Part shown: positions 6,689 to 60,828 of the stretch, piece by piece | How positions within the stretch are numbered: position 1 is the stretch's first letter | How the letters are laid out: each line of letters starts with the position of its first letter | NCBI GenBank assembly: GCA_029262795.1 | Contig: JAJCYT010000018.1 | Span: 103,982 to 167,981, forward strand | DNA: 64,000 nucleotides | Direction: 5' to 3' | Origin: Candidatus Fraserbacteria bacterium | GTDB taxonomy: Bacteria; Bipolaricaulota; Bipolaricaulia; RBG-16-55-9; JAJCYT01 | Notes under the pieces: generated by a model | The model's database searches: none | Told to the model about the DNA's origin: nothing | The model's input: the letters and a program-made list of their open reading frames with translations, nothing else | Program-made: the position numbers and the translations under genes

Positions 6689-7351
6689 TTAATTTCTCGC
6701 ATCCAGAATACAGACCCCATTCTTTTTAAGATCCTCCACAATGGGCTGGTACTCGTAACCATCAATACGCAACACAACCACATTTGTATGATCATCTCCG
6801 TTGACCGTCTGTTGATGGTTTTCGCTCGTGATCGTGCTGAGCACGTGGATGCCGTGTTTTTTAAACAGTCCCAGCACAGGGGCCAACGCATCCGGCTCGT
6901 TGGGCAGGGCCAGCGTAAGACGCGCGCCTTCTTTAAACACACCAAGTGCATTGAGCAGGATTTTGAACAGGTCGGACTCTGTGATGATGCCTACCAGTTG
7001 ATCGTGATCCATCACCGGCAGCCCACTCACCTTGCGTTCACGCATAATGAGGGCGGCATTTTCGACAGCGTCATCGGGCGAGATCACACTCAAATCAGCG
7101 CGGCGGGTCATCACATCCTTGACGCAGGTTTTGGCCAACAGGTAATTCAACTCCCACATATTCAGGCTGTTGGCATCGGAGGGGCCGGCTTCCTGAATAT
7201 CACCTTCAGTCACCATACCGGCCAATTGGCCATGCTTGAGTACGGGCAAGCGTCGAATACAGTTTTCCTTCATCAGGTTTCGTGCTTCTAAAATGGGCGT
7301 GTCCTGATCCACTGTGATGACCTCTTGTGTCATCCACATTTTAACAAACAT
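6689..7351 (-). CDS. CBS-pair plus ACT-like domain protein (AcuB-like)
   Basis: 220 aa. Two CBS motifs are present (MTQEVITVDQDTPILEARNLMKENCIRRLPVL; DVMTRRADLSVISPDDAVENAALIMRERKVSGLPVM). A C-terminal ACT-like beta-alpha-beta segment follows. Confidence 0.75.
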   Translation of the reverse strand: MFVKMWMTQEVITVDQDTPILEARNLMKENCIRRLPVLKHGQLAGMVTEGDIQEAGPSDANSLNMWELNYLLAKTCVKDVMTRRADLSVISPDDAVENAALIMRERKVSGLPVMDHDQLVGIITESDLFKILLNALGVFKEGARLTLALPNEPDALAPVLGLFKKHGIHVLSTITSENHQQTVNGDDHTNVVVLRIDGYEYQPIVEDLKKNGVCILDARN

Positions 7352-8978: not shown

Positions 8979-10745
8979 ATGTTGCAATTTGCAGGCGCTG
9001 TGGATCGTGACGCCGAACAAAAACTGCTGGACACCTTGTCCATTGACGAACCCTGGGGTCTGATTGAAGCGTTTACCCAGTGGGTGCGAGAATCGACCAC
9101 GGACGATGAAAAGAAATCATTCGATTATATTGAAGATCGACTTAAAACTTTGGGAGTTTCCTATCAACGCTTTGAGCCTGAAATGTACATCAGCTTGCCA
9201 AAAAAAGCGACCATGGAGTTGCTCAGCCCTGAGCAAAAATCCATTCGTGTCAAAACCATCAGCTTTTCGGCTTCCACACCCCCTGAAGGCATTGAAGCCG
9301 AGGTGGTTTATATCGGCGGTGCGCAGGCCACAAACGTGGAAACGCTGTTTGACTCTAACATTGGCGATGTCGATGTCAAAGGAAAAATCTCTCTGTGCGA
9401 AGGCTTTGGCATGCCCAGCAAGATTTCGGAGCTTGAAAAAGCGGGGGCTGTGGCTCAAATTTACATCAACCCCGGGCAAAACATTCACGATGGCATGGCC
9501 TCTCCTGTCTGGGGTTCTCCTGGCTTGGAAAACCGCAAAGGGATGCCAGGACTGCCTATCGTTTCGGTCAACAACCCTGATGGGTGCTGGCTGGTGGAAC
9601 AATGCCAGAAGGGCACTGTTAAAGCCCGTGTCATGACCGAACTCGATGAAGGCTGGAAAACTGCCCCCGTCATCGAAGCCACCATCCCAGGTTCTGAAGA
9701 CCCTGACAAATATGTACTTGTCCATGGCCACGTCGATTCCTGGGGCATCGGCATTGGCGACAATGCCGTGGGGGACGCAACCCTGCTTGAGCTGGCCAGG
9801 GTGTTCAACGAACACAAAGGCGGCCTCAAACGAACGTTAAAAGTCGCCTGGTGGACAGGCCACTCCACAGGCCGTTATGCAGGCTCGGCCTGGTATGCCG
9901 ATGAATTTGCCAGAGATTTGGATGAAAACTGCATTGCCCAAGTGAATATTGACTCACCTGGTTGTCGCGGGGCCACATCTTATGAAGATGTGTTTGTGAT
10001 GCCTGAAAGCGAAGCCTTTTGCACCAAAGCCATTGAAGATGCGATGGGAAAGACACCCGCATTCATGCGTCCGTTGCGGGCCGGTGACTACAGCTTTAAC
10101 AACATTGGCATCAGCAGTTTTTATATGTTGTTGTCCACCATCCCCGCAGAAGAGAAACAGCGCATGGGCTTATATCCCGTCGGCGGCTGTGGCGGCAACA
10201 TCGCCTGGCACACTGAAGACGATGTCCTGGACATAGCCGACAAAGACAACCTCATCAATGATTTGAAAGTATATATCACCTCGTTGAGGCGGGTGCTCAA
10301 CTGCAACACGCACCCTTTTGACTATCGCAAGACGGCAGAACGGATGCATGGCGCACTCAAGCAATACGAGGACAAAGCGAACAAAGCCGGTGTGTCGGTC
10401 AACTTCAAGGCGGCACATGCAGAGTTCGATGGATTGCAACAGGCGCTTGAAGGTCTTTATCAAAAGATTGATTCAGGGGAACTGGATGCACAAAAAGCCA
10501 ATGCCATTTTGCATCAACTGGCACGGCAACTGGTGTCGCTGGACAACACCACCCAACCACGGTTTTATCACGACCCTGCCTTGCCTCGCCCATCGCTTCC
10601 GGCATTGCTTGTGGCAAACGATTTGGCCGACCTGGACGACTTTGAAAAGAAATTTGCTCAAGTGGACTTACGCCAGGGTGTAAACCATGTGGCAGGCAGC
10701 ATCCGCCAATCAAGGTTTTTACTGCAAATGTCAGCAAATGTATGA
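8979..10745 (+). CDS. M28-family metallo-aminopeptidase with PA domain
   Basis: M28 zinc-ligand region: LVHGHVDSWGIGIGDNAVGDATLLELARVF. A PA-like insert is present (VKGKISLCEGFGMPSKISELEKAGAVAQIY). The track ORF starts at 8847, inside gntR. I prefer the in-frame ATG at 8979, which is preceded by a GGAGG RBS. Confidence 0.8.
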   Translation: MLQFAGAVDRDAEQKLLDTLSIDEPWGLIEAFTQWVRESTTDDEKKSFDYIEDRLKTLGVSYQRFEPEMYISLPKKATMELLSPEQKSIRVKTISFSASTPPEGIEAEVVYIGGAQATNVETLFDSNIGDVDVKGKISLCEGFGMPSKISELEKAGAVAQIYINPGQNIHDGMASPVWGSPGLENRKGMPGLPIVSVNNPDGCWLVEQCQKGTVKARVMTELDEGWKTAPVIEATIPGSEDPDKYVLVHGHVDSWGIGIGDNAVGDATLLELARVFNEHKGGLKRTLKVAWWTGHSTGRYAGSAWYADEFARDLDENCIAQVNIDSPGCRGATSYEDVFVMPESEAFCTKAIEDAMGKTPAFMRPLRAGDYSFNNIGISSFYMLLSTIPAEEKQRMGLYPVGGCGGNIAWHTEDDVLDIADKDNLINDLKVYITSLRRVLNCNTHPFDYRKTAERMHGALKQYEDKANKAGVSVNFKAAHAEFDGLQQALEGLYQKIDSGELDAQKANAILHQLARQLVSLDNTTQPRFYHDPALPRPSLPALLVANDLADLDDFEKKFAQVDLRQGVNHVAGSIRQSRFLLQMSANV

Positions 10746-20135: not shown

Positions 20136-21158
20136 TTAATTTAAGATAATCAGTTGCTTCACATCGCTTCGTTCTACCTCTCCATTTGATTTGTGGATGG
20201 TGACCACATAAAAGTACACGCCATTGGCCAACCGTTGTCCATCCTGATTTAGGCCGTAAAAGCGCAGACTGTTACCATCTGAGCGATCTTCGAATACCAC
20301 CTGGCCGGAAGTGTCCATCATCATCAGTTCCACATCTTCCACGCCGTAGCCCAAGACAGTGATTGCCAGCTCACCTGGGCTAGGGGCTGTCACATTCAGA
20401 CTGATGGGCTCAGGGGCACGACCTGGGGCCAACACTTGAATTTCGTCAATGCCGCCAAACAGGCTTTGTACGCGCAGTTGATTTTCAAAACAGTAAACCA
20501 CACCACGATCCAAGCCCGTTAAAAAAGCGTTCATTCGCATGTCGGGAGAACCATGGGCATTGGGGTCATCATGTGGCGTGCCTTCAGGGTCGCCAAGCAC
20601 AAAGAACGTGTAAGCGCCTTCTTCCACATCCCCAGGATCCGCCAGCCCATCTTCAACCACGTGAGCCGTGTAAGCGCCAGTGAGGCAATCAGCCTGCAAC
20701 TCTGAATCAATGGTCATCATGGTGCCAAACAATCCAAGCTGACCTTGCAGCGCGTGACCCCACTCATGGCCCAAAATGGCGGCCACAGCAAAGTCGCCAA
20801 TTTCCTGAAGCAGGTAATCAAACAGTTCAGCATCATAAGAAATGGTGTGATCCAGTGAGCAGTAAAAAGCATTATTAGGAATAGATTCACCGCATTCAGT
20901 GTAGACAGGGTAGTTGGCTGTGTAAGGCTGCACCACATTAGGTGGAAAATATTCCAGGTTGTATTCAACAAACGTCTGGCGCCAGAAATTGTCGATGTCG
21001 TTAACGGCAAAATCTACCAAGTCGAACAAGTCCCAACCACCATCATGCTCGGGTGTAAAAATATCGAGTCGTTCAAATTCCTGTGCCTGAGCCAAGGTGG
21101 CTGTTCCAATGACCAAGACCAATAAAATGATTGTAATTTTCAAAAGCAAATGTTTCAT
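20136..21158 (-). CDS. secreted neutral zinc metallopeptidase (YpfJ/Zn_peptidase-like) with C-terminal sorting-like beta-sandwich domain
   Basis: 340 aa. Sec signal MKHLLLKITIILLVLVIGTATLAQAQE. HExxH site ILGHEWGHALQ. The C-terminal ~80 aa (LRFYGLNQDGQRLANGVYFYVVTIHKSNGEVERSDVKQLIILN) matches the C-termini of the 58056 and 60829 gene products. Confidence 0.7.
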   Translation of the reverse strand: MKHLLLKITIILLVLVIGTATLAQAQEFERLDIFTPEHDGGWDLFDLVDFAVNDIDNFWRQTFVEYNLEYFPPNVVQPYTANYPVYTECGESIPNNAFYCSLDHTISYDAELFDYLLQEIGDFAVAAILGHEWGHALQGQLGLFGTMMTIDSELQADCLTGAYTAHVVEDGLADPGDVEEGAYTFFVLGDPEGTPHDDPNAHGSPDMRMNAFLTGLDRGVVYCFENQLRVQSLFGGIDEIQVLAPGRAPEPISLNVTAPSPGELAITVLGYGVEDVELMMMDTSGQVVFEDRSDGNSLRFYGLNQDGQRLANGVYFYVVTIHKSNGEVERSDVKQLIILN

Positions 21159-21366
21159 GATTTTCTCCTTTACGCTTTTATTTGGTGTCGTTTTTAAACG
21201 CGGGTTTGAGCTACAAAGTGGCTCATTTCCCGGATGCGAAAGTTGAACTTAAACTAACTGGAATGCGTGACAATATCGTGACAGACCTTCTTTGAGTTGT
21301 TTCCCCAAAAAGCATCGTGTTACACTCAACAATGGGTTTAAATCAGGATGATGAGGGAGGTCTCTG

Positions 21367-23307
21367 ATGCTGCGAGCAAGCAGTTGGGGACGTATTTCGG
21401 TGTTGCTGTTTTTTTTCTTGGTCACACTGCTATCGGCACACACCAGCGTTCAGTCACAATCTGAAGATGCTGAGGTGATTGCCATTGCAACCGTGCTGGA
21501 TGTCGATGGCAATCGAGTCTTGGGCGATCGGGAAATATTGGAAGCAGTCAGATTGTGGATTGTGGGCATTTCCCCGCCAACACGAAATCAATCCATTCTG
21601 GACACACAAATTTTAGGACTTATTCGCTTATGGATCACAGGCGCCTTGCTGCCAGATGGGCCTTCATCACCCACCCTCCCCCCCGATGACGAGGAGGGGC
21701 CACACGAAGATGACCTGCCGAATGGAGCAGATGCCATCATTCAATCCCTGTCTCAAAGTTCTTCAAAATTATTTAAGACATTTGATAACATCAGGGCCAT
21801 CCGCTCCATGTTCAAAAACGATCTGGAAGATGAGATTGAAGATACCTTCATTCCAGGACTACGCGCCTATCACGACAGCCAACAAGTGTTAAACGACCTA
21901 ATAAGTGTGTGTCCTGCAGGGCCAATTCGGCGTGCTGATTTAATGGGCTTTATTGAAACCACAGAAGACATTGTAGATCTGGTCAAAAAAGATTTTAACG
22001 CAACCACACAATTTCAATCCGCCATAACCAGCTTTAATCAAGCACTGTCTATGTTTCTTGCTGACAACGATCCGCAAGCACTTCAGTTCACGTGCGGTGC
22101 AAACGGAGGTCAGATGTTTATGTCTCAAGGGCTCGACGGTCTGGCTGATCAATTGGGACTAATGGCCAGTGATTTTGCAACGCAGGCAAACGACATTGTG
22201 CTCGACTTGCAAAACTCAAAGACACAATTTCAGGATGTGACAACTGCATTCAAAAGCTTATTACAATCTGATATCCCTACCACCAGCGCACTGTTTGAAC
22301 ACCTTAACGGGGCGGCTGATATGATTGGCTCCTTCCTCATTGGCGCTGCTCTCAGTGACAGCATGGATGAAATTGGTGGCGTTCAACAATTGTTTTCGGT
22401 AGAAGACTTTGACCTGCCCAATCTCAATCCAAGCGAGATCATGCTGAAAACTGAAAATGCTGATGACAGCTTTAGTGATATTTTTTCACAAGAAGGAGAA
22501 TTTGGCTGGATGTTGAACGGGTTTCAATTCTATTTCTGTGGCGGCAAATATGTCACCATCATCGGCACGGAAGGCAATGACACCCTGAAAGGAAAAACCA
22601 AAGACCCCATCGATGGCATTGGCGGCACGGACAATGTGGATGACGTAATTTCCGGTCTGGGTGGTGACGACAATCTTACGGGACTTGGCGGCAATGACAT
22701 CATTTGTGGCGGCGATGGTGATGATAAAATCATCGGCAATGCTGGCAATGATCTCCTTTACGGTGGTCAAGGCGCAGATCAGATAGATGGCAGCGAAGGC
22801 CACGACCGCATTTATGGTGGGCCTGCTGACGACCTCATCTTGGGAGGCATTGGCCAGGATATTCTTTTTGGTGAAGGCAGCAACGACATCATCATTGCAG
22901 GCAATGGCTTAAATTCAGCAGATTTCGACATGGTGTTTGGCGGATATGGTGATGACAAACTCAATGGCGATGACGGTGTGGACTGGATTGATGGCGGACC
23001 AGGCCAGGACATTCTTGAAGGGAATGGCCATGATGACAGCATGTGGGGCGGCGATGGCGAAGACATCCTGCGTGGTGGCCCTGGAAACGACACCCTGGAG
23101 GGGGATGCTGCGGGTGGCACGGTGGACCTTTCCTTCCTACACCGTGACGAACTCTATGGTGATGCAGGCAACGATTTTCTGCTTGGCGGCTATGGTGGCG
23201 ACCTGCTGGTCGGGGGAGAAGGCCAGGATATTTGCAACGGTGGCAAGGCAGGCGGATTCCCCGACACCGCCTCGACCGATTGCGAGACTGTAAAAAATGT
23301 CCCTTAA
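21367..23307 (+). CDS. secreted protein with hemolysin-type (RTX) calcium-binding nonapeptide repeats
   Basis: 646 aa. N-terminal Sec-type signal. The C-terminal third consists of GGxGxDxxx repeats (GLGGDDNLTGLGGNDIICGGDGDDKIIGNAGNDLLYGGQGADQIDG...). I did not recognise the central helical domain. Confidence 0.75.
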   Translation: MLRASSWGRISVLLFFFLVTLLSAHTSVQSQSEDAEVIAIATVLDVDGNRVLGDREILEAVRLWIVGISPPTRNQSILDTQILGLIRLWITGALLPDGPSSPTLPPDDEEGPHEDDLPNGADAIIQSLSQSSSKLFKTFDNIRAIRSMFKNDLEDEIEDTFIPGLRAYHDSQQVLNDLISVCPAGPIRRADLMGFIETTEDIVDLVKKDFNATTQFQSAITSFNQALSMFLADNDPQALQFTCGANGGQMFMSQGLDGLADQLGLMASDFATQANDIVLDLQNSKTQFQDVTTAFKSLLQSDIPTTSALFEHLNGAADMIGSFLIGAALSDSMDEIGGVQQLFSVEDFDLPNLNPSEIMLKTENADDSFSDIFSQEGEFGWMLNGFQFYFCGGKYVTIIGTEGNDTLKGKTKDPIDGIGGTDNVDDVISGLGGDDNLTGLGGNDIICGGDGDDKIIGNAGNDLLYGGQGADQIDGSEGHDRIYGGPADDLILGGIGQDILFGEGSNDIIIAGNGLNSADFDMVFGGYGDDKLNGDDGVDWIDGGPGQDILEGNGHDDSMWGGDGEDILRGGPGNDTLEGDAAGGTVDLSFLHRDELYGDAGNDFLLGGYGGDLLVGGEGQDICNGGKAGGFPDTASTDCETVKNVP

Positions 23308-23400: not shown

Positions 23401-23997
23401 ATGTCACAAGCGTCCAGTGATGTGACCGGTTTGTTGATGGCATGGAGCAGTGGCGATGAACGCGCTCAGGACAAGCTCATGCCGCTTGTGTATGAAGAAC
23501 TTCAGCAGATTGCCAGTCGTTATCTTCGTCGTGAGTACGTTGGTCACACCATGCAAACGGTCGATCTGGCCAACGAAGCCTACATGAAGCTGGTGGATCA
23601 GAATCAGGTAGACTGGAAAAATCGCGCTCATTTTTTCGGCATTGCCGCCAACATCATGCGTCGTATTCTGATTGATCAGGCTCGTAGTCGACAGGCAGTC
23701 AAGCGTGGTGGTGAGGTCAAGAAATTTTCCCTCGACCATGAAGCCGTTCAACTTTCCTATGTGGGCTTTTCGGAAGAACCCAACTTTGATCTGCTGGACC
23801 TGGACGATGCTTTGAAAGAACTGGCCGAATTCGATCCACGCCAGGGTAAACTTGTCGAACTCCGATTTTTTGGCGGACTGAGCATTGCCGAAACGGGCGA
23901 AGTGTTGGAAATCTCCCCCGCCACCGTCAAGCGCGAATGGAATGTCGCAAAAGCCTGGCTCAAACGCCGACTCAGCCAACACACCAATGACGCCTGA
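23401..23997 (+). CDS. ECF-type RNA polymerase sigma factor (kinase-associated class)
   Basis: Region 2 (PLVYEELQQIASRYLRRE...DLANEAYMKL) and region 4 (VELRFFGGLSIAETGEVLEISPATVKREWNVAKAWL) are present. I prefer the ATG at 23401, which has an AAGGAG RBS at 23390..23395, over the track TTG at 23383. Confidence 0.85.
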   Translation: MSQASSDVTGLLMAWSSGDERAQDKLMPLVYEELQQIASRYLRREYVGHTMQTVDLANEAYMKLVDQNQVDWKNRAHFFGIAANIMRRILIDQARSRQAVKRGGEVKKFSLDHEAVQLSYVGFSEEPNFDLLDLDDALKELAEFDPRQGKLVELRFFGGLSIAETGEVLEISPATVKREWNVAKAWLKRRLSQHTNDA

Positions 23998-26900
23998 ATT
24001 GTGGCAAAGGGTTAAAGAAGTTTTTGATCAGGCACTAGAAATTGCGCCTGATGAGCGATCCTCATTCTTAATCAAAGTCTGTGGTACTGATGCAACACTG
24101 AAAACCGAAGTTGAATCCCTGCTCGACACTTACAAAGAAGACGATGATTTTTTAGAAACCCCTGCTGCTGAAGTATTTGCATCAAAAATTGCGCCAAACA
24201 GCACAGCCAGTTTCAATGCGCCCCCCACTCAATTTGGACGATATCAGGTCATCAAGCCATTAGGACAGGGTGGCATGGCCACGGTCTATCAAGCGCAGGA
24301 CCCGACTTTGGATCGCCAGGTTGCCATCAAAGTGATCCATCCACATTTGGCGCACGAAGCCAATTTTGACCAGCGATTTTTACAGGAAGCCAAAACAGTC
24401 GCAGCCCTGAGCCACCCCAACATCATTCAGATTTTCGATCTGGACCTGATCGATGGGGCTCCCTTCATGGTGATGGAATGTCTCCAAGGCGGCACGCTCA
24501 AAGACAAACTGCATCAGCAGGGCGTTCTCGATTTGGAAATGATCATCCAATTGATTGAGCGAATGACGCAAGCGCTGGATGTGGCCCATCAACAGGACAT
24601 TATTCATCGAGACTTAAAGCCGGCCAATATATTGTTCAATGAACGAAATGAACCCATTCTGACCGATTTCGGTATCGCCAAGCTGATGACCGAAACTGTG
24701 CAACTCAGCGTCACCGGCAGTGCGGTGGGCACGCCAACCTACATGGCCCCTGAACAGGCAAAAGGCGATCACCCCACACCACAAAGTGACCTCTATGCCT
24801 TGGGCGTGATGCTGTATGAATTGATGACAGGCCGTGTGCCATTCCGAGGCGATTCTCCTATTGCCGTGGTGTTGCAACATTTGGAAGAACAGCCGGTTGC
24901 ACCCTCCACGCTTCAACCTGATTTGTCACAGGCAGTGGAGGCCGTCATCCTCAAAGCACTATCAAAATCACCACAGGATCGCTTTCAAAGTGCGATTGAG
25001 TTGTACGAAAGTTTCACTCAGGCAGTGCGTGACAAAGCAGATACATCAACCGCTTCAACAGTTCAGCCGCCACGAACTGTGCCTCAGCCTGAGCCTCGAA
25101 TTGAACAGCCAGTTGAAACCATTGAGCTCAACTTGCCTTTGCCAGCCACCCCATTCCTGGGGCGAGACAAAGAACTGGACGACATCAACACTGCATTTGC
25201 TGATTCAAATTGCCATTTGTTAAACCTGATTGGTCCTGGCGGCATAGGTAAAACACGTCTGGCTCTGAAAACAGCAGAAGCCCAGCACCTAAACTTTTTG
25301 CATGGGGTTGCTTTTGTCCCACTCGAAGCGGTGGCTTCCTCGCAACAGATCGTGACCAAAATTGCGGAATCAGTGCGCTTTAGTTTTTTCAATGCAAGAA
25401 ACCCCAAAACATTGCTGTTCGATTTTCTCAGCAACAAAGCCATGCTTCTGGTGCTGGACAACTTTGAACATTTGGTCGAGCATGCTGTGCTCATTTCAGA
25501 ACTGTTACAGCGCGCACCTGGAATCAAGGTGCTGACCACTTCCCGCGAACGGCTTCATCTTCAAGAGGAGTGGGTGATGGAATTGAATGGACTGCCCATT
25601 CCAGAATCTGCTTCGATGGATGCTTTGCAAGATCACACCTCAATTCAATTGTTCATCAATCAGGCCAAGCGTGGCAACGTGAATTTCACTCTCAATGAAG
25701 CAGGCCTTCCCGTTTTGCTCGACATTTGCCGCATGGTGGATGGGTTGCCATTGGGCATTGAGCTGGCTGCTGGTTGGAGCCGGATGCTGCCCATTTCCGA
25801 AATCGCAAAAGAGATCGAAAAGAATTTGGATTTCCTGGCCAGCAATGTACAAAATCTGCCCAAACGCCATCGCAGTCTGCGAGCAGTGTTCGATTATTCC
25901 TGGCAGCTTTTGTCTCAAGATGAACAAAGCGCATTTCAAAAACTTTGCCTGCTGCCAGCTTCGTTTGATCATCAGGCAGCATCCTATATTGCTGATGCTT
26001 CGCTGCCAACGCTGATGTCTTTGCTGGACAAATCTTTGTTGCGACAAAGCGACCAAGCCCATTACAAGGTGCCAAATTTATTACGACAGTTTGGTGAAGA
26101 AACATTGCGTCAACAGGGCCAGAGCTATCGTTTGACTCAAAGAAAATTCTGTACATATTTTTCAGAATTTCTCAATCACCGAGAAGCTCTTTTGCAATCC
26201 CCTGAACAAAAGTCTGTCTTGGATGAGATTCAAACATCATTGCCTCACTTGAGGCTCAGTTGGCAGTGGTCGGTGGATCAGGTGAAAGTTGAATGGCTGG
26301 ATCAATCACTTCATGCGTTTTTCCTGTTCTTTGAGAAAAAAGGGTTGTTCCGTGAAGGCTTGGAACTGTTTGAAAAGGCATTTCTTCAACTCAAAAAAGT
26401 CTCAACCAATGATGACCACCCTGCAACCCTGCTGTTGTTCAAACTCATGACCCGCCAAGGCCATCTGATGCGGCTGTTGAGTCTCAATCAAAAATCATTG
26501 GCATTGCTGCAAAAAAGTGCAGATCAACTGGCCATGCTCGATGCATCATCTGAATATGCGTTCACTTTAACTTCACTGGCCAACACGCAATTGCGCCTGG
26601 GACAAAGCGATCAGGCAGAAGCCACTTTTTCAAAAGCAATGGATGTTTATCAAGCCATTGACGACCCTATTGGCATGGCCAGTGTACTCAACGGCCTCAG
26701 CAACATCAGCTACCATTACGGCAATCTTGAAGATGCACAACGTAAGACTGAGGAAAGCCTGGCACTGCGACGTCAGGAAAATGATTTGGTGGGCGTCGCT
26801 GCATCACTCAACAATCTGGGAAACATCACCGGCGATCGCGGAGATTTGGAAAACTGCATCAGCTATTACGAGGAATCCTTGGACATCAAAAAGAAACTGG

Positions 26901-27619
26901 GTGAAAGCCTGGGCGTTGCCACCACACTGAACAATTTAGGCGCAACTTATGCCGTGTTTGGCGAATATGAAAAAGCTGTCTATTACCATAAACAATCGCT
27001 GGAAAACCATCGCAAAATTGGCGACCTGTGGGGCACAGCCACTTCAATCAGCAATATTGCACGCTGCTATCTGGACTTGAAACAATACGAGAAAAGTAAA
27101 CAAATGGAAGAAGAAAGCCTCATCATGCGTCAGGAAATTGGCGATATCCGTGGCATTGCCGTGTCTTACCATCATCTCGCCATTCTGGCCATCAAACAGG
27201 ATGATCTTGAAGCCGCCCAACCTCCCCTAAAGCAAGCACTTCAATACATCCGACAAGATGGAAATGCGACAGAAACGATTTCCATTCTCACCAACTGTGG
27301 ACATGTCAGTCGCAGGCAGAATGAAATTTTCACGGCCTGGGGCCATTTAATTGAGGCTCTAAAACTAACTCTAAAGATCAATGCGGGTCTCCTCAAAATG
27401 AGCGTATTGAACGAAATCGGCATGCTGCTTGTGGATACCGAGCATACCGGCCTGGCAATGAAATCACTCCAAGTGGTTGCCCAACATCCTGCCACCATTG
27501 AAGAAGTACGCCAAAAAGCACAAACTTTTTTGAGTCAATCAGATCCCCCCCTCCCGGAAACTTCGAAAGAGGTTGAGCTAGAAACTCTTGTTGAAAAGAT
27601 TTTAGACATTGATTTTTAA
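23987..27619 (+). CDS. soluble Ser/Thr protein kinase fused to STAND-type P-loop NTPase and TPR repeats
   Basis: Hanks motifs: GQGGMATVY, VAIKVI, HRDLKPANILF, DFGIAK, GTPTYMAPE. Walker A GPGGIGKTRLAL and Walker B LLVLDNFEH. The C-terminal TPR array has repeated LNNLG-type helices. I see no hydrophobic TM segment. The start ATG at 23987 (MTPELWQRVKEVF) overlaps the sigma gene by 11 nt. The track start at 23885 would lie inside the sigma CDS. Confidence 0.85.
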   Translation: MTPELWQRVKEVFDQALEIAPDERSSFLIKVCGTDATLKTEVESLLDTYKEDDDFLETPAAEVFASKIAPNSTASFNAPPTQFGRYQVIKPLGQGGMATVYQAQDPTLDRQVAIKVIHPHLAHEANFDQRFLQEAKTVAALSHPNIIQIFDLDLIDGAPFMVMECLQGGTLKDKLHQQGVLDLEMIIQLIERMTQALDVAHQQDIIHRDLKPANILFNERNEPILTDFGIAKLMTETVQLSVTGSAVGTPTYMAPEQAKGDHPTPQSDLYALGVMLYELMTGRVPFRGDSPIAVVLQHLEEQPVAPSTLQPDLSQAVEAVILKALSKSPQDRFQSAIELYESFTQAVRDKADTSTASTVQPPRTVPQPEPRIEQPVETIELNLPLPATPFLGRDKELDDINTAFADSNCHLLNLIGPGGIGKTRLALKTAEAQHLNFLHGVAFVPLEAVASSQQIVTKIAESVRFSFFNARNPKTLLFDFLSNKAMLLVLDNFEHLVEHAVLISELLQRAPGIKVLTTSRERLHLQEEWVMELNGLPIPESASMDALQDHTSIQLFINQAKRGNVNFTLNEAGLPVLLDICRMVDGLPLGIELAAGWSRMLPISEIAKEIEKNLDFLASNVQNLPKRHRSLRAVFDYSWQLLSQDEQSAFQKLCLLPASFDHQAASYIADASLPTLMSLLDKSLLRQSDQAHYKVPNLLRQFGEETLRQQGQSYRLTQRKFCTYFSEFLNHREALLQSPEQKSVLDEIQTSLPHLRLSWQWSVDQVKVEWLDQSLHAFFLFFEKKGLFREGLELFEKAFLQLKKVSTNDDHPATLLLFKLMTRQGHLMRLLSLNQKSLALLQKSADQLAMLDASSEYAFTLTSLANTQLRLGQSDQAEATFSKAMDVYQAIDDPIGMASVLNGLSNISYHYGNLEDAQRKTEESLALRRQENDLVGVAASLNNLGNITGDRGDLENCISYYEESLDIKKKLGESLGVATTLNNLGATYAVFGEYEKAVYYHKQSLENHRKIGDLWGTATSISNIARCYLDLKQYEKSKQMEEESLIMRQEIGDIRGIAVSYHHLAILAIKQDDLEAAQPPLKQALQYIRQDGNATETISILTNCGHVSRRQNEIFTAWGHLIEALKLTLKINAGLLKMSVLNEIGMLLVDTEHTGLAMKSLQVVAQHPATIEEVRQKAQTFLSQSDPPLPETSKEVELETLVEKILDIDF

Positions 27620-27674
27620 CAATCTTTAATTCTGTTCTTCACTTAAGCAATCCATTCAAAAAACTCCTTATGAT

Positions 27675-27773
27675 CCATGAGCCACTTATGCGCTTTTTTT
27701 CGCGTTGGTTAGTTGAGGCGAAATGAACATGAATTTTTTAATCAACAACAGCAACGAGAAAGGGCACATAATG
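27675..27773 (+). promoter_or_regulatory. conserved 99-nt upstream/leader element, copy 1
   Basis: CCATGAGCCAC, 15 nt, then the 33-nt core CGCGTTGGTTAGTTGAGGCGAAATGAACATGAA (27701..27733), continuing to GAAAGGG and the ATG at 27771. The length and register are the same as in copies 2 and 3. Confidence 0.6.
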
Positions 27774-28460
27774 AAACATTCCACACTTAAAAACACAGGA
27801 CTCGCCATGATGGCTTTGGTCTTAATTTCAATTTTGGTCACCGGTTGCGGTGGCAGAAACACCCCACAAGCCAATGGCCAACCTGGCCAACAATCCGCAC
27901 AAACCCTCAACAACGCGCTGCTACAGGGTCAAACACAAGGTAGTGTTCGTTCAGTGATCGGCAACAATTCTCAGATTCAGGGCCAGCCACAGGGCGGTTT
28001 TCAAAATGGTCAGTTGAACAACAATCGCCCGACCAATGGCCAACCTCAAGGCTTGGGTCAAGCCATGAGCACAGGGTTCCAGAATGGTCAGGCTCAGCCC
28101 AACCAACCGCAGGGATTGGCACAACAATCTTACGGGCAGTCCTCTTATGGCAATTCAGGATACGGTCAGCCCATGGCGCAACCCAACAATGGCTGGAACA
28201 TGCCACAGAATTCATACAACGATCCTTACTTCGGTAACTTTGAAGACTGCGGCTGCTTCGATAACTTTGAAGATTATGGATTGAAAGACTTCGGTGAAGA
28301 TGTTGAAGAGCTTATAGGTTGGATCAACCCCTTCGACGACAATGAAAATTCCAACCAAGCCACAGACTATTACTGGATGAACGATGCCACCGGCATGGTC
28401 GTGGTCACGCAATCCCCCCAACCTCCCGCACAAGGGTTTGTTTTAGCTGAACAGAACTAA
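27723..28460 (+). CDS. Q/G/N-rich lipoprotein (short paralogue of the next two genes)
   Basis: Lipobox LVTGC. Low-complexity Gln/Gly/Asn-rich body. C-terminal DYYWMNDATG motif. Alternative start at ATG 27771 (MKHSTLK) behind GAAAGGG. Confidence 0.7.
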   Translation: MNMNFLINNSNEKGHIMKHSTLKNTGLAMMALVLISILVTGCGGRNTPQANGQPGQQSAQTLNNALLQGQTQGSVRSVIGNNSQIQGQPQGGFQNGQLNNNRPTNGQPQGLGQAMSTGFQNGQAQPNQPQGLAQQSYGQSSYGNSGYGQPMAQPNNGWNMPQNSYNDPYFGNFEDCGCFDNFEDYGLKDFGEDVEELIGWINPFDDNENSNQATDYYWMNDATGMVVVTQSPQPPAQGFVLAEQN

Positions 28461-28490
28461 ACGTTAGCGCGTTTCCAAGTCACGGTGAAA

Positions 28491-28522
28491 GGGTGAGTTA
28501 AACCTCATCCTTTTGCTTTTTT
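28491..28522 (+). terminator. rho-independent terminator of lipoprotein cassette 1
   Basis: GGGTGAG (28491..28497) pairs with CTCATCC (28504..28510). This is 7 bp including one G-U pair. TTTTGCTTTTTT follows. Confidence 0.6.
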
Positions 28523-28538
28523 AAAGTTTCCATACGTT

Positions 28539-28637
28539 CCATGAGCCACCTTTGAGCTTTTTTCCGCGTTGGTTAGTTGAGGCGAAATGAACATGAAATT
28601 TTTAACAAACAACAGCAACGCGAAAGGGCACAACATG
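28539..28637 (+). promoter_or_regulatory. conserved 99-nt upstream/leader element, copy 2
   Basis: Same CCATGAGCCAC box, identical 33-nt core and GAAAGGG, ending at the ATG at 28635. It begins 17 nt after the cassette-1 terminator. Confidence 0.6.
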
Positions 28638-29816
28638 AACAACATCAAACGCAATGACATCGGCTTGGGAATAATCACTTTGGTTTTGATTGCAGTGTTG
28701 ATCACCGGGTGCGGCGGAAATAACAACGCTCAGACAAATCAACAAAGTGGATTCGTCACACAATCCACCGCTTTGAATCCAGCCCTGCAACAGCAGATGC
28801 AGGCCCAGGGCATTGAAGTGACACAAGTTCAGCAAACACAACAGCCAATGAGCGCACCACAACTCAATCAGCAATCCAGAAATGATGCAAATGTGAATTT
28901 TGTTCGATACACCGATCCCACACAACATGCGTTCACCGTGGATGTGCCACAGGGTTGGACCAACCAGGGTCGCACAAAAGGCATCAAAAATGAAATCACG
29001 TCGCTTTCCCCAGATGGCATGATCCTGATTCAAAACGGTGATGTGAGTTTGCCGGAGTACGTGGAAGCCTCTGCTTATCAGCCAGCCACCGCACCAGGTC
29101 AGTGCCAGAATTTTTATGGTGCCTGCTTCGAGGTGCGTCCTTTTACCAGCGGTATTCAGTTTGCGGCAGAGTATGTGGGCTATAAATTTGGCCAGATTTG
29201 TCAAAACCTCAGCTTTACTGGCCAACGCAAACGTCCGGACTGGGAACAATACATCGGCCAAATTCTTCAAGTGGATCAGATCAATGCCACAGGATATGGC
29301 ATGCAGATGGGATTGGACGCAGGCGAAGTGGATTTCACCTGCACCCTGAACGGCCAACAGATGCGCGGCACCTACATGCTTGTCAATCGTTTCATGCGCT
29401 TTGCCGATGGCATGGGCGGCAATTATGGTTCCTGGGAACCTTACCTGCTCTCAGGATTTGTAGCCCCTGCCCACCAAACAGACCTGGCTTTGGCCATCTC
29501 AAATCGTGCCCAAAACAGTTTTAAACTCGATCAAAACTGGCTCAATGCGCAGGCCAGAGCCAACCGCCAGAGCATGCAGCAACGAAGTTCCATTCTTGAT
29601 AACAGCACCAGCAGTAGTGGTAGCAGTGACAACTACGATCGTTACAATCAGATGATGCGCGGCACCACCAATTTGTACAATTCGGAAACGGGTGAAACGC
29701 AATACAACGTGGACAACAACAGCAATTACTACTGGCAGAATTCTGGCAGCACCTATGGCACAGACCTCAATGAAACATCCGATCCATTTGCCACGCAGTT
29801 AGAACAACAATATTAA
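28587..29816 (+). CDS. lipoprotein of unknown family (paralogue of 29951..31237)
   Basis: 409 aa. Lipobox LITGC followed by a Gln-rich linker. The globular part starts FVRYTDPTQHAFTVDVPQGWTNQGRT. C-terminal NYYWQNSGSTYGT motif. Alternative start at 28635. Confidence 0.75.
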   Translation: MNMKFLTNNSNAKGHNMNNIKRNDIGLGIITLVLIAVLITGCGGNNNAQTNQQSGFVTQSTALNPALQQQMQAQGIEVTQVQQTQQPMSAPQLNQQSRNDANVNFVRYTDPTQHAFTVDVPQGWTNQGRTKGIKNEITSLSPDGMILIQNGDVSLPEYVEASAYQPATAPGQCQNFYGACFEVRPFTSGIQFAAEYVGYKFGQICQNLSFTGQRKRPDWEQYIGQILQVDQINATGYGMQMGLDAGEVDFTCTLNGQQMRGTYMLVNRFMRFADGMGGNYGSWEPYLLSGFVAPAHQTDLALAISNRAQNSFKLDQNWLNAQARANRQSMQQRSSILDNSTSSSGSSDNYDRYNQMMRGTTNLYNSETGETQYNVDNNSNYYWQNSGSTYGTDLNETSDPFATQLEQQY

Positions 29817-29847
29817 ACTCCACTCAGACGCAGGCACAACCAAGGCC

Positions 29848-29890
29848 AGAAGCATCAAGCGAACCTTGCTTGGTGCTTCTGTTTATTTTT
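29848..29890 (+). terminator. rho-independent terminator of lipoprotein cassette 2
   Basis: 13-bp stem: AGAAGCATCAAGC (29848..29860) pairs with GCTTGGTGCTTCT (29868..29880), with one G-U pair. GTTTATTTTT follows. Confidence 0.7.
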
Positions 29891-29902
29891 ATCCGGCAAA
29901 TT

Positions 29903-30001
29903 GCATGAGCCACGCTTGACTCTTTTTGCGCGTTGGTTAGTTGAGGCGAAATGAACATGAAATTTTTAATCAATAACAGCAACACGAAAGGACGCACAAT
30001 G
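29903..30001 (+). promoter_or_regulatory. conserved 99-nt upstream/leader element, copy 3
   Basis: GCATGAGCCAC box, identical 33-nt core and GAAAGGA, ending at the ATG at 29999. It begins 13 nt after the cassette-2 terminator. Confidence 0.6.
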
Positions 30002-31237
30002 AAACATTCAAAACACATCAGCTTCAGTTTGGCCATGTTAATCCTGGTCTGCATGTTGATCAGCGGTTGCGGTGGTGGCGTAAGCAACCAGCAGGTGCTT
30101 CAATCCCAGCAAAACGGATTTATTGCGCCACAGGGAATGCCAAATCAGCAATTGGCTCAGCAACTTCAGGGTGGATTCACACAGCCTGTGGGCAACTCCA
30201 ACACGCAGCCACAAGCCCAGCAACAAACCCGAACGTCCATCAACCATCAGCAGGGACAACGCAGCATGAACGCAAACGGGATAACCTTCACACGCTTTAG
30301 TGAACCAACCCAAGGTGCTTTCAGCGTCGAAGTGCCTCAAGGCTGGTCCACCACAGGCCGCACGGTGAACAATAAACACGAAGTCCAAACATTTTCCCCT
30401 GACAACCTTGTGGGTATCCAGGCTGGTGACGTGAGTCTCTCATCATTCATGGAACCAAGCGCCACCACACCACCCATCGGTCAATGTCATTATTATCTGG
30501 GGCAGTGCATCCAGGTGGAACCGTTTATGAATGGCGTTCAATTCGCAACAGAATATCTCAAGCAGGATTTGGCTGAAGCAGGGTCGTGTCAGCATTTGAC
30601 ATTCTCTAATCAACGTCAGCGTCCGGACTGGGAGCAGATGGTTGCTCAGGCATTGCAAGTGGACGCCTACCGCCAGATGGGAATGCAAATGCAGGTCAGT
30701 GCCGGCGAGGTGGACTTTATTTGCCAGACTCAGGGATTGCCCGTTCATGGCCGATATCTGGCCGTCACCACCCTCACCCGCATGAGTGACAACATGGGAA
30801 CAAGCCTGAGTATGTGGGAACCTTACATGATCATGGGCTATGCCGCCGTGCCTGAACGTTTAAACGAAGCCCAGGCCGTGCTGGCTCGCATGGAAAGCAC
30901 ATTTCAGTTGAACTCAAACTGGACCACGGCTTACAACAATGCATCTCAGCAAGGGTTTCAACAGCGCCAACAGGCCATTAATCAATCAAACGCCTACACC
31001 AACAATGCCATCATCAGTACAGGTGAAAACTACAACGCCACGATGGACGACCTCAGTCGTCAGCGTTCCAACACCATGCGCGGCACCACCGATGTGGTCA
31101 ATCCCTACACCGGCCAAACCTGGAACGTGGAAAGTGGCAGTGAATCCTACTGGTATGATCCCGTTTACGGCAACACTTATGGTTCCAACACCTACGAATC
31201 ACCCGATGCCTGGTATGAACCTTTGAATCAATATTGA
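29951..31237 (+). CDS. lipoprotein of unknown family (paralogue of 28587..29816)
   Basis: 428 aa. Lipobox LISGC followed by a Gln-rich linker. FTRFSEPTQGAFSVEVPQGWSTTGRT aligns with the previous gene. C-terminal SESYWYDPVYGNTYGS. Alternative start at 29999. Confidence 0.75.
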   Translation: MNMKFLINNSNTKGRTMKHSKHISFSLAMLILVCMLISGCGGGVSNQQVLQSQQNGFIAPQGMPNQQLAQQLQGGFTQPVGNSNTQPQAQQQTRTSINHQQGQRSMNANGITFTRFSEPTQGAFSVEVPQGWSTTGRTVNNKHEVQTFSPDNLVGIQAGDVSLSSFMEPSATTPPIGQCHYYLGQCIQVEPFMNGVQFATEYLKQDLAEAGSCQHLTFSNQRQRPDWEQMVAQALQVDAYRQMGMQMQVSAGEVDFICQTQGLPVHGRYLAVTTLTRMSDNMGTSLSMWEPYMIMGYAAVPERLNEAQAVLARMESTFQLNSNWTTAYNNASQQGFQQRQQAINQSNAYTNNAIISTGENYNATMDDLSRQRSNTMRGTTDVVNPYTGQTWNVESGSESYWYDPVYGNTYGSNTYESPDAWYEPLNQY

Positions 31238-31261: not shown

Positions 31262-31300
31262 AGGGACAGCTTACAATTTATGGGCTGTCCCTTTCTGTCT
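31262..31300 (+). terminator. rho-independent terminator of lipoprotein cassette 3
   Basis: AGGGACAGC (31262..31270) pairs with GCTGTCCCT (31284..31292). This is 9 bp with a 13-nt loop, followed by TTCTGTCT. Confidence 0.55.
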
Positions 31301-31417
31301 ATGAAAATTTCTTGATTGAAATCCATTTCCATTTCCTGAGACATGCCCCTTTTGAGAGTGATTGATGTCCTTACGGACAATTCAACCGCTTTGTTACCAT
31401 GATTACATTGGGATAGT

Positions 31418-47553: not shown

Positions 47554-48936
47554 TTAACTGCCTGGGACTGGTATATCCGTAGGTGGCACAAAAAAGTACG
47601 TAAGTTTGTCAAATTTACCGCTGGCACAAGCCATCGCTGCTGGATCAAAGCCCTGAGGCGGTGAGGAAATCAGTCGATTCAACACCAAGAAACTCAAATC
47701 AGGCACATCCAGCCCATCTACAAATTCATCGGCACTGCCAGCAGAGATTAGCTTTTCACGCACAGCTATTTCAAAAGCGGCTTCTTCCGCACGCTTGATG
47801 CTCATTGTGATCAAAATTTGATCCAATAAAGGCATTTCAACGTTCAGTGCGCGTAACATAAATAAAGAGGCTGCGCCTTTGCTGATGGGATCATCTGCAA
47901 CCACCGGATAATCTTGTGGTATCACACCTTCAGACACAAAAAATGCCACGATTTCATCAATGGTGGCATTAGAGGGAAGATCCATCGACCCATTGCTCAA
48001 AACGAACAATAAGCGCAAAAATTCTTCATGCGTCAGCAACTGTCTGGGGATCAACGTATTGATGTAATCCACAAGTGATCTGGATGAGAAGCAATTTCCG
48101 CAAGACAGGTTGGGCAACAAAATGGCTTCAGTGGCCAATTGTGCCACTTCTTCCGGCAACAACACCCTGTTATAAATGCGGGCTTCGTCCAAAATACCAG
48201 GCAATACACCCATGCCAGGCGTGTTGGTTTCTGGATTGAGGGCTGATCCTAAGTAAAGCAAATCATCATTAATTTCAATCGGGCCAGGGCCAAGGGTGAC
48301 TGTTTGATCAACCTGACCATCCAGGTAAAGTTTGGTTTCACCCGTTTCGGCATCGTAAGAAAGCGACAAATGGAACCAGCGACTTTGAGGAACGGACGTT
48401 TCACTTAAAATCGTTTGTGGCTCACCGGCAATATTTAAATGCCCCTGCGCTTTCATTTCTTCATGCTCAATCCCCAAGCCATATACATCAATATTGGGTT
48501 TGGCAAACGCAAAAAATTCCTCATCTTCGCTGTCTTCAACAAGGTTCTTATTGAGGCAGATCCAACATGTCAGGGTCAACGTGTTGTTGACATCTAAAGA
48601 GTTTGTATCTTTCACCTTGGCGATAAATGTTTCTCGGCCGTAGAAATTCAACCCAAACTCAATCAAACCGTTGACCCAGCTTGGGCCATCGAGTTCGCCA
48701 TCATTGTCAAAGGGGGAGCGGTCGAACAAAATCCGTCCGCTGCCTTCATCGAATGTCCAGTAGCCCACCAAACCTTCATTCAAACGATCAATGTTCACCT
48801 GCGCTTGAGTCACAGGATCTGCAATTTGATGAAGGGTCAGCAGAATGAGCGCAAACAGTGCCAGGCGCTTCAAATTTTTTAAGATCATTTCTTGCCTCAT
48901 TTTAAATTGATATAAATTTAAAGTTCTTATGAACAC
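47554..48936 (-). CDS. secreted LamG (concanavalin-A-like lectin) domain protein
   Basis: LamG entry motif LVGYWTFDEGSGRILFDRSPFDNDGELDG and exit motif LDEARIYNRVL. I did not recognise the ~190-aa C-terminal domain. The likely start is M17 (48888), behind GAGG. It ends 18 nt upstream of the GT2 gene. Confidence 0.75.
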   Translation of the reverse strand: MFIRTLNLYQFKMRQEMILKNLKRLALFALILLTLHQIADPVTQAQVNIDRLNEGLVGYWTFDEGSGRILFDRSPFDNDGELDGPSWVNGLIEFGLNFYGRETFIAKVKDTNSLDVNNTLTLTCWICLNKNLVEDSEDEEFFAFAKPNIDVYGLGIEHEEMKAQGHLNIAGEPQTILSETSVPQSRWFHLSLSYDAETGETKLYLDGQVDQTVTLGPGPIEINDDLLYLGSALNPETNTPGMGVLPGILDEARIYNRVLLPEEVAQLATEAILLPNLSCGNCFSSRSLVDYINTLIPRQLLTHEEFLRLLFVLSNGSMDLPSNATIDEIVAFFVSEGVIPQDYPVVADDPISKGAASLFMLRALNVEMPLLDQILITMSIKRAEEAAFEIAVREKLISAGSADEFVDGLDVPDLSFLVLNRLISSPPQGFDPAAMACASGKFDKLTYFFVPPTDIPVPGS

Positions 48937-49325
48937 TTATCCAACCTAAGCAATAACATAACATTGCTTTGCGCAACAATTATTCAGCTCTCAAGTGAAC
49001 AATATGTTGCAAATAAAATGTAGGCTCGTTTTGGTTCTCTCGCCTGTACGCGCCTTTAAGTTGTGTTTATTTGGGATTTTGCTGAAACCACCCAATAAAC
49101 ACAGTCTTGAAACTGTATTTCTTGCTCATGGGTAATCCAGCCATCTGGGAAATTCAGATCTGTGATTTTGCGCCCTTATCTCACGATAAGTTTGCCTTTA
49201 TCGCATGAGACTTTGGTAAAAGCCTCAAGATATTTTTTCTCTATTATACACAATAAGTTTAAAAATACAACTATGTGCTATGGAGTTTAACAATTATAAA
49301 GCATTTTTTTAAACTTGTCAATATA

Positions 49326-60818: not shown

Positions 60819-60828
60819 TATTCCCCCT

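Follow-up and report, generated by a model that had tools for sequence, protein, structure and literature searches.

What keeps the DNA in front of a gene more uniform than the gene itself? This question is raised by three tandem lipoprotein genes in a 64,000-nt stretch of contig JAJCYT010000018.1 from a Candidatus Fraserbacteria bacterium (called the window here, and all coordinates refer to it), each of which is preceded by a copy of a 99-nt element (27675-27773, 28539-28637 and 29903-30001). A first-pass annotation of this DNA had noticed that the three copies share an invariant 33-nt core and had considered a promoter or operator, a leader RNA, recent gene conversion and a translated N-terminal tag as possible reasons. 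We propose, with a probability of roughly 0.7, that the element combines a promoter for an extracytoplasmic function (ECF) sigma factor with a conserved, unstructured leader, and that it serves as an expression cassette for each gene separately. Its upstream third is very probably a promoter read by the kinase-coupled ECF sigma factor that is encoded beside it, whereas for the leader we infer a role in translation start.

Conservation within the window and across lineages

A search of the window with the 33-mer CGCGTTGGTTAGTTGAGGCGAAATGAACATGAA gave exactly three matches, all on the plus strand and starting at 27701, 28565 and 29929, and no additional match in the window when up to three mismatches were allowed; the chance expectation was 0.00 (100 shuffles). 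An alignment and a repeat finder (family D1) both place the copies in a single register, with start-to-start distances of 864 and 1364 nt, which confirms the earlier description of three in-register copies. The details reported with it are present as well, namely the CATGAGCCAC box (at 27676, 28540 and 29904), a 15-nt T-rich spacer with TTGA in copies 2 and 3 but not in copy 1, GAAAGG(G/A) ahead of an ATG (at 27771, 28635 and 29999), and two upstream ATGs that are in frame with this lipoprotein ATG, with a GAGG ending 4 nt before the first of them. Translation from the upstream ATGs would give MNMNFLINNSNEKGHI, MNMKFLTNNSNAKGHN and MNMKFLINNSNTKGRT in the three copies. Within the window, the identity between copies is about 38% upstream of the box, 100% in the box, the CGCGTT, an 8-nt linker and a 19-mer, 86% in the A-rich tract that follows, and 56% in the part coding for the signal peptide. 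Conservation is thus concentrated in the non-coding leader part, as had been claimed, since the segment identities of 86-100% drop to 56% after the lipoprotein ATG. One qualification is that weaker homology (63-75%) runs on through the signal peptide and extends the repeat to about 222 nt in total. Open reading frames on the opposite strand also span the elements and were judged to be by-products of the conserved DNA.

Uniformity among neighbouring copies might result from recent tandem duplication or gene conversion only, in the absence of any selection on the element. The 8-nt linker fits such an origin, as it is identical in the window copies and variable in relatives, and gene conversion of 5' ends is evident in relatives. 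This explanation was weighed by comparing nine element copies from three genomes, that is, from the window and two other lineages (alignment A3). The lipoprotein family is very small: a search of 5.8 billion proteins gave two close homologs (about 50% identity) and a remote one, and the contigs with the close homologs encode the same three paralogous genes with an element before each. The sigma factor orthologs in these relatives are 91% identical at the protein level, with about 55% identity to the window at four-fold degenerate sites, and the mature coding DNA of the lipoprotein orthologs is 62-71% identical, with 42-51% at third codon positions. The low identity at four-fold and third-position sites indicates that neutral sites are close to saturation, and the 62-71% coding identity that the related contigs are not recent horizontal copies of the locus. 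Compared between the window and its relatives, identity is 34% in the upstream DNA, 98% in the -35 segment TGAGCCAC, 67% in the 15-nt spacer, 100% in CGCGTT, 67% in the linker (7-9 nt, with indels), 99% in the 19-mer GAGGCGAAATGAACATGAA, 71% in the A-rich tract, 95% in CGAAAGG, 100% at the third ATG and 61% in the signal-peptide codons. Cross-lineage conservation of this degree against saturated synonymous sites shows selection on the element, and hence on DNA or RNA, as the first-pass annotation had suggested. Equal conservation across the whole genes in relatives, which would point to simple recent duplication, is not seen, the coding DNA being only 62-71% identical.

Judged by their mature parts, the three genes themselves are old paralogs with one-to-one orthologs in the relatives. 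Genes 2 and 3 share 41% protein identity, the mature domain of gene 1 is unrelated to both, and the mature parts are 62% (gene 1), 70% (gene 2) and 55% (gene 3) identical between orthologs and the window. With each old paralog having its own ortholog, and with the box, CGCGTT, 19-mer and CGAAAGG at 95-100% identity while synonymous sites are at about 45-55%, the cross-lineage comparison refutes an origin of the identity without selection, to which we attach hardly any probability. Gene conversion occurs alongside selection. Within a related genome, genes 1 and 2 encode signal peptides of 76-92% identity despite unrelated mature domains, and gene 3 of one relative (L005) is a mosaic, with an N-terminus like its neighbours and a remainder like its ortholog; together with a linker that is identical only within the window, these mosaic signal peptides indicate gene conversion. 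The 33-mer is made up of 6 nt of a putative -10 element, the 8-nt lineage-specific linker and 19 nt of the predicted transcript, and its perfect identity is best read as that of selected modules (CGCGTT and the 19-mer) joined by a locally homogenised linker.

The element seems to be confined to the lineage of the window, and among 5.8 billion proteins no more than three related genomes came to light. An exact 22-mer search of a genome collection gave no match, and a search of genome and metagenome collections with the 19-mer gave 24 single matches, none of which has the box or CGCGTT upstream. These matches are chance occurrences, several of them evidently ordinary contexts of a ribosome-binding site plus start codon in unrelated taxa. 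The distant lipoprotein homolog (P0004) has no upstream motif, and no sigma-kinase pair is found on its 8.8-kb contig.

The putative promoter and the sigma-kinase operon

When the window was searched with the bipartite query GAGCCAC-N(12-20)-CGCGTT, four sites were found compared to 0.04 expected, and the gap was 15 nt in all four. With up to two mismatches allowed, the same four perfect sites were still the only ones (0.34 expected); the next-best window sites have at least three mismatches and were judged to be background, their individual positions relative to genes not having been mapped. Three of the sites belong to the element. The predicted promoter of copy 1 covers 27678-27706 on the plus strand, with the -35 TGAGCCAC at 27678-27685, the 15-nt T-rich spacer and the -10 CGCGTT at 27701-27706, and its counterparts in copies 2 and 3 (28542-28570 and 29906-29934, both plus strand) begin 25 nt past the terminator hairpins of genes 1 and 2, respectively. 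The fourth match (21197-21224, minus strand) precedes an unrelated gene coding for a Zn-metallopeptidase with a CHU_C (type IX secretion) C-terminal domain (20136-21158, minus strand; PF04228 and PF13585). This putative fourth promoter, TGAGCCAC-N15-CGCGTT at 21197-21225, lies 38 nt before the peptidase ATG, lacks the 19-mer leader and shares nothing beyond the bipartite motif with the 99-nt element, and the peptidase gene is therewith a probable fourth member of the regulon. The four sites sit 38-95 nt before start codons. In the relatives, the motif is kept before all three lipoprotein genes, and in L030 and L031 TGAGCCAC-N15-CGCGTT is found before the peptidase orthologs as well, where the rest of the element is missing. 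The peptidase leader of these two contigs (L030, about 7300-7345; L031, about 9330-9375; both minus strand) holds a short upstream open reading frame, ATGAACAACGAAAAGTGA (MNNEK*), between the promoter and the real start, which loosely resembles a shortened lipoprotein leader and is missing from the peptidase leader of the window.

A terminator scan placed intrinsic terminators after gene 1 (28484-28527), gene 2 (29847-29891) and gene 3 (31262-31302), all on the plus strand, and a promoter scan found no sigma-70-like promoter within the three elements. This implies that each gene forms its own transcription unit with a promoter inside the element. A sigma-54 promoter was checked by eye and rejected, as TGGTTAGTTGAGGC is one base short of the GG-N10-GC spacing.

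A candidate for the sigma factor that reads these sites is encoded 2.2-6 kb from each of them, and all four sites flank its operon. The gene at 23401-23997 (plus strand) codes for an ECF sigma factor (Pfam PF07638, E=1e-57) that scores 215.8 bits against NCBIfam model TIGR02999, for which the curated cutoff is 126.15, and thus belongs to this family. It is followed by a gene for a Ser/Thr protein kinase of 1211 residues with NB-ARC and TPR domains (23986-27619, plus strand; Pkinase E=1e-52, NB-ARC, TPR_12), whose start codon (ATG at 23986) overlaps the stop of the sigma gene by 12 nt, and the pairing of sigma and kinase genes is repeated in nine related loci. A Pfam scan of genes around the sigma gene detected no anti-sigma domain. 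The sigma gene itself is not preceded by the RTGAGCCAC-type motif, which fits post-translational control by the kinase rather than autoregulation (PMC8999054, PMC13147305). Between the peptidase and sigma genes, a further gene (21367-23307, plus strand) codes for a 646-residue protein with RTX calcium-binding repeats; it has no ECF-type motif upstream and is absent or fragmented in the relative L031. In the window, the lipoprotein genes directly follow the kinase gene (gap 27619-27675). In the relatives L001 and L031, about 6 kb of unrelated genes separate the two, coding for a peptide-binding protein, an M24 peptidase, an HTH_3 regulator, an enoyl-CoA hydratase and a DUF805 protein.

The same motif is also found near more distant sigma-kinase pairs. 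We fetched six loci whose sigma factors are 57-61% identical to that of the window, in each of which the sigma gene is followed by a kinase gene, and scanned them for the motif with up to two mismatches at a spacing of 15 nt and at 11 other spacings. The spacing of 15 gave four matches, all intergenic, with an exact CGCGTT and within about 5 kb of the sigma-kinase genes, whereas 17 of the 20 matches at the other spacings lie inside genes (3/20 intergenic). Intergenic DNA makes up 13% of these loci, and a Fisher test calculated by hand gave a value of about 0.003. The four sites belong to pairs whose sigma factor is 58-60% identical. One of the four sites (in L033) is divergent from the sigma gene. 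The other three (in L034) lie 42-49 nt before a DUF4190 gene and an M48 peptidase gene, both just upstream of the sigma gene, and before a small gene about 1.2 kb downstream of the kinase gene. Fifteen non-redundant sites have in common T-G-A-G-C-C-A-(C) and an invariant CGCGTT, usually with A as the next base, and their positions -4 to -2, counted from the -10, are T-rich. Taken together, the adjacent ECF sigma gene, the fourth site in the window and the same motif in relatives and beside distant sigma-kinase pairs support the earlier idea of an ECF-type -35/-10 arrangement, and TGAGCC-N17-CGCGTT would be the -35/-10 of this sigma family. RTGAGCCAC-N15-CGCGTT(A), which recurs by sigma-kinase pairs in very different genomes, is a clean and testable candidate for a promoter motif and could serve to predict regulons for the family.

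The leader and its start codons

Downstream of the putative promoter, the linker GGTTAGTT (27707-27714, 28571-28578 and 29935-29942; plus strand) is identical in the window copies, and transcription is expected to start within it, just after CGCGTT. As both the length of the linker (7, 8 or 9 nt) and its sequence differ across lineages, promoter and downstream part seem to be separate modules. It is followed by the 19-mer GAGGCGAAATGAACATGAA (27715-27733, 28579-28597 and 29943-29961; plus strand), of which no other copy is found in the window at up to three mismatches and which contains the Shine-Dalgarno-like GAGG and the two upstream start codons (in copy 1, ATG1 at 27723 and ATG2 at 27729). 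The A-rich tract (27734-27770, 28598-28634 and 29962-29998; plus strand) comprises four to five consecutive A-R-N triplets and a second Shine-Dalgarno sequence (GAAAGGG, 27758-27764 in copy 1) and leads up to the lipoprotein ATG (ATG3). The predicted transcript would begin a few bases before GAGG, so that the 19-mer to ATG3 would form approximately the first 60 nt of the mRNA.

A structured cis-regulatory RNA (a riboswitch, for example, or a thermosensor or attenuator) would be one way to account for strong conservation of non-coding DNA before three genes, and the organism does use riboswitches: a genuine c-di-GMP-I riboswitch is present elsewhere in the window (49128-49206, minus strand; Rfam RF01051, 61 bits, with the gathering score at 35) and is followed after about 190 nt by a gene for a protein with a Laminin_G_3 (concanavalin-like) domain (47554-48936, minus strand). 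The leader itself, however, has no match in Rfam even at E<=1, the folding of six leaders is no better than that of shuffled sequence (z between +0.24 and +2.32), and RNAalifold returned five pairs at -1.7 kcal/mol with no compensatory change. With no covarying pair, a structured leader RNA, for which a covariation check had been suggested, is thus not borne out and has at most a marginal probability. An inverted repeat in copy 2 (CGCGTTG/CAACGCG) was dismissed, as it is not conserved in the other copies.

The leader offers two start regions in one frame. ATG1 and ATG3 are 48 nt apart in all nine copies, an invariant GAGG precedes ATG1 by 4 nt and ATG2 by 10 nt, and the conserved CGAAAGG lies 6-7 nt upstream of ATG3. 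Read from ATG3, all nine copies encode a positively charged n-region, a hydrophobic core and a [TS]G|C lipobox cleavage motif, and the call for window gene 3 in a public collection (P0001) starts at ATG3. A translated tag had been put forward as another cause of the conservation. Translation would then begin at ATG1 or ATG2, and the 16-residue MNMKFLINNSNxKGxx might have a function of its own and, for example, slow or direct export in the manner of an extended signal peptide. The spacing of GAGG to both upstream codons agrees with such a tag, as do a frame that is open over exactly 48 nt in eight of nine copies and the choice of ATG2 by the public gene caller for five of six related genes. In addition, the chance matches to the 19-mer elsewhere often supply ribosome-binding site and start codon to secreted proteins that open with MNMK, and thereby to real signal peptides. 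On the other hand, copy 1 of L005 (7558-7575) reads ATG AAC ATG AAA AAC TGA, an in-frame stop that leaves a five-codon mini open reading frame (MNMKN*) although the gene and the remaining leader are intact; this copy is on a single assembled contig and differs from its ortholog at four positions within a 5-nt stretch. The variable columns fall on codon positions 1, 2 and 3 in the numbers 4, 7 and 8, and most of the differences change the residue. Moreover, untranslated bases (GAGGCGAA) belong to the best-conserved stretch, ATG3 with its conserved Shine-Dalgarno sequence is the start of a complete canonical lipoprotein signal peptide, and by a rough estimate a 16-codon frame is open by chance about once in three times at this base composition. 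The stop in L005 and the lack of a coding substitution pattern make a functional peptide tag improbable. Initiation at the upstream ATGs as additional start codons is nevertheless plausible, and the ability of the 19-mer to work as an ordinary ribosome-binding site plus start in unrelated genomes suggests that it is a competent translation-start region in its own right.

The invariance of all 19 bases, which would stand at the 5' end of the three mRNAs and for which no RNA structure is predicted, nevertheless poses a puzzle. One might speculate that the 19-mer, alone or with the A-rich tract, is bound by a trans-acting regulator, either in the DNA, as the operator of a repressor just past the transcription start, or in the RNA, by a small RNA or an RNA-binding protein like Hfq. 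This would be compatible with the promoter assignment and would compete only with the role in translation start. All 19 positions are conserved in eight of nine copies across saturated divergence, more than a Shine-Dalgarno sequence and a start codon require, and the 19-mer comes directly after the expected transcription start. In the A-rich tract, four to five A-R-N triplets are kept, with variation at N, or between A and G at R (alignment A3), and an A-R-N repeat is the pattern known for the distal face of Hfq. The 19-mer has, however, neither dyad symmetry nor a direct repeat at helical spacing, no sequence complementary to it occurs elsewhere in the 64-kb window, and no candidate regulator gene is conserved by the cassette, which in the relatives has unrelated genes around it and is about 6 kb away from the sigma-kinase operon. 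Besides, where the 19-mer turns up by chance in unrelated genomes, it provides secreted proteins with an ordinary ribosome-binding site and start codon. We regard a bound regulator as unlikely, yet as a rival still to be reckoned with. Slightly less doubtful, and still tentative, is the broader notion that the three lipoprotein mRNAs share a dedicated module for post-transcriptional control, made up of the 19-nt 5' end and the (A-R-N)n tract, which would act through a regulated choice between the two in-frame starts or be recognised by an RNA-binding protein or small RNA. If this were true, the output of the kinase-coupled ECF regulon would be gated a second time at translation, by a module that gene conversion of a portable promoter-leader-signal-peptide cassette would keep uniform.

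In the mechanism that we favour, promoter plus leader, each 99-nt copy would be the expression cassette of one monocistronic lipoprotein gene and consist of two functional parts. TGAGCC(AC), the T-rich 15-nt spacer and CGCGTT would form the -35 and -10 for the TIGR02999, ECF43-like sigma factor encoded at 23401-23997, which is probably co-transcribed with the Ser/Thr kinase containing NB-ARC and TPR domains. Once the pathway is active, the sigma factor would direct RNA polymerase to the four window promoters, and thereby to the three lipoprotein genes and the divergent Zn-metallopeptidase gene, with transcription starting in the variable 7-9-nt linker just past CGCGTT. The resulting leader would comprise the 19-mer, the A-rich tract and CGAAAGG-N6-7-ATG, with two in-frame start regions (GAGG with ATG1/ATG2, and AAAGG with ATG3). 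ATG3 would be the main start and give the canonical lipoprotein signal peptide, and the upstream site would probably load ribosomes or act as an auxiliary start. As the signal peptide is cut at the lipobox cysteine, the mature protein would be identical from either start. The cassette of promoter, leader and signal peptide would thus be common to genes with different mature domains and be homogenised by tandem gene conversion.

Several points weigh against this reading. Most ECF promoters are marked by AAC in the -35 and CGT in the -10 (PMC8103513). The -10 CGCGTT does contain CGT, but the -35 TGAGCC carries GCC in place of AAC and is not a textbook ECF -35, and our literature search yielded no published ECF43 promoter consensus for comparison. 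Although the motif is present beside two of the six distant sigma-kinase pairs, no such motif is found within 10 kb at the other four. A function in translation start does not obviously need all 19 nt to be invariant, and a bound protein or small RNA could be the constraint. Finally, control of the window sigma factor by the kinase may differ from the studied cases. Its region 2.2 (residues about 50-54) reads QTVD, where the TIGR02999/ECF43 consensus is QTTA; a Val replaces the usual phospho-acceptor Thr of the family and an Asp is regained, and it hence lacks the uncharged region 2.2 with a phospho-acceptor Thr that is canonical for ECF43. The two closest relatives likewise have QTVD. In 14 more distant homologs, the first three positions of region 2.2 are QTT or QAT (10/14) or QTS or QST (4/14). 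The window sigma factor may thus be independent of the canonical phosphorylation switch.

The candidate regulon and comparison with known systems

Counted from ATG3, lipoprotein gene 1 (27771-28460) codes for 229 residues with the signal peptide MKHSTLKNTGLAMMALVLISILVTG|C, gene 2 (28635-29816) for 393 and gene 3 (29999-31237) for 412, all on the plus strand. The proteins have no match in Pfam, NCBIfam or PDB sequence searches. For gene 3, an AlphaFold2 model has pLDDT values of mostly 74-94 over residues 92-320, and its best Foldseek matches are PsbP, the mycobacterial lipoprotein LpqN, MTC28 and DcrB. The predicted core is accordingly of the PsbP/Mog1/DcrB/LpqN-like type, a PsbP/Mog1-like fold found in envelope lipoproteins. 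The model-based assignment, together with the secreted Zn-peptidase, suggests an envelope-directed response. The locus would thus represent a compact candidate regulon of three envelope lipoproteins, two of them with a predicted PsbP/DcrB-like fold, and a Zn-metallopeptidase.

Other features of the window, which has a GC content of 48%, include two adjacent large genes (58056-63543, minus strand; 920 and 904 residues) that are diverged tandem paralogs and were seen as repeat families D2 and D3 (about 71% identity, spacing about 2765 nt). Apart from two or three metagenomic assemblies of relatives, a housekeeping-type enzyme, an aldehyde dehydrogenase, has its best matches at about 50-53% identity in several phyla; the lineage of the organism is poorly sampled.

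Compared with ECF promoters in general, which have a spacer of 16-17 nt (e.g. SigW, TGAAAC-N16-CGTA), the predicted promoter is similarly bipartite: its hexamers, TGAGCC and CGCGTT, are rigidly spaced at 17 nt, its -10 starts with CG and contains CGT, the bases just before the -10 are T-rich, and it is located 38-95 nt before start codons. It differs in the -35 core, GCC instead of AAC, and in its conserved flanks (RTGAGCCAC, and CGCGTTA in relatives). The leader recalls extended signal peptides and tandem starts in that the upstream ATGs with their Shine-Dalgarno sequence would lengthen the n-region of a signal peptide that is removed later, by 16 residues (14 if translation began at ATG2). 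Here, however, the added residues are not conserved as a peptide and are interrupted by a stop in one copy, and to our knowledge they have no sequence similarity to the extension motif of autotransporters.

A cassette of promoter, operator and leader peptide that is joined to diverse mature lipoproteins and kept by recombination has been described for the erp genes of Borrelia burgdorferi and their 'upstream homology box' (PMC10016077). In the window, a promoter-leader-signal-peptide cassette similarly stands on unrelated mature parts (gene 1 compared to genes 2 and 3) and 5' ends are mosaic. The resemblance is one of analogy and not of homology: the genes described here are three chromosomal tandem genes, whereas erp genes are located on prophage plasmids, the promoter is of a predicted ECF type, and no operator-binding proteins are known for the window cassette.

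Among known regulatory systems, the ECF43 pairs EcfP-PknT of Vibrio parahaemolyticus and EcfK-PknS of Xanthomonas citri come closest. In ECF43 sigma factors, the acidic DAED of region 2.2 is replaced by uncharged residues with a conserved phospho-acceptor Thr, QTTA (PMC13147305, PMC8999054). The window sigma factor matches the same models (PF07638 and TIGR02999), its gene is directly followed by a Ser/Thr kinase gene with no anti-sigma domain among the scanned neighbours, and the absence of a motif copy before it fits phosphorylation control over autoregulation (PMC8999054). In contrast to PknS, a membrane receptor kinase, the window kinase looks like a soluble STAND protein (NB-ARC and TPR), and the regulon consists of lipoproteins and a Zn-peptidase, whereas the known targets are polymyxin-resistance or type VI secretion genes. 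The window sigma factor also has QTVD and not QTTA. Kinase-coupled ECF sigma factors are widespread and few have been studied, and an odd member that lacks the canonical phospho-acceptor Thr bears on how general the phosphorylation switch is.

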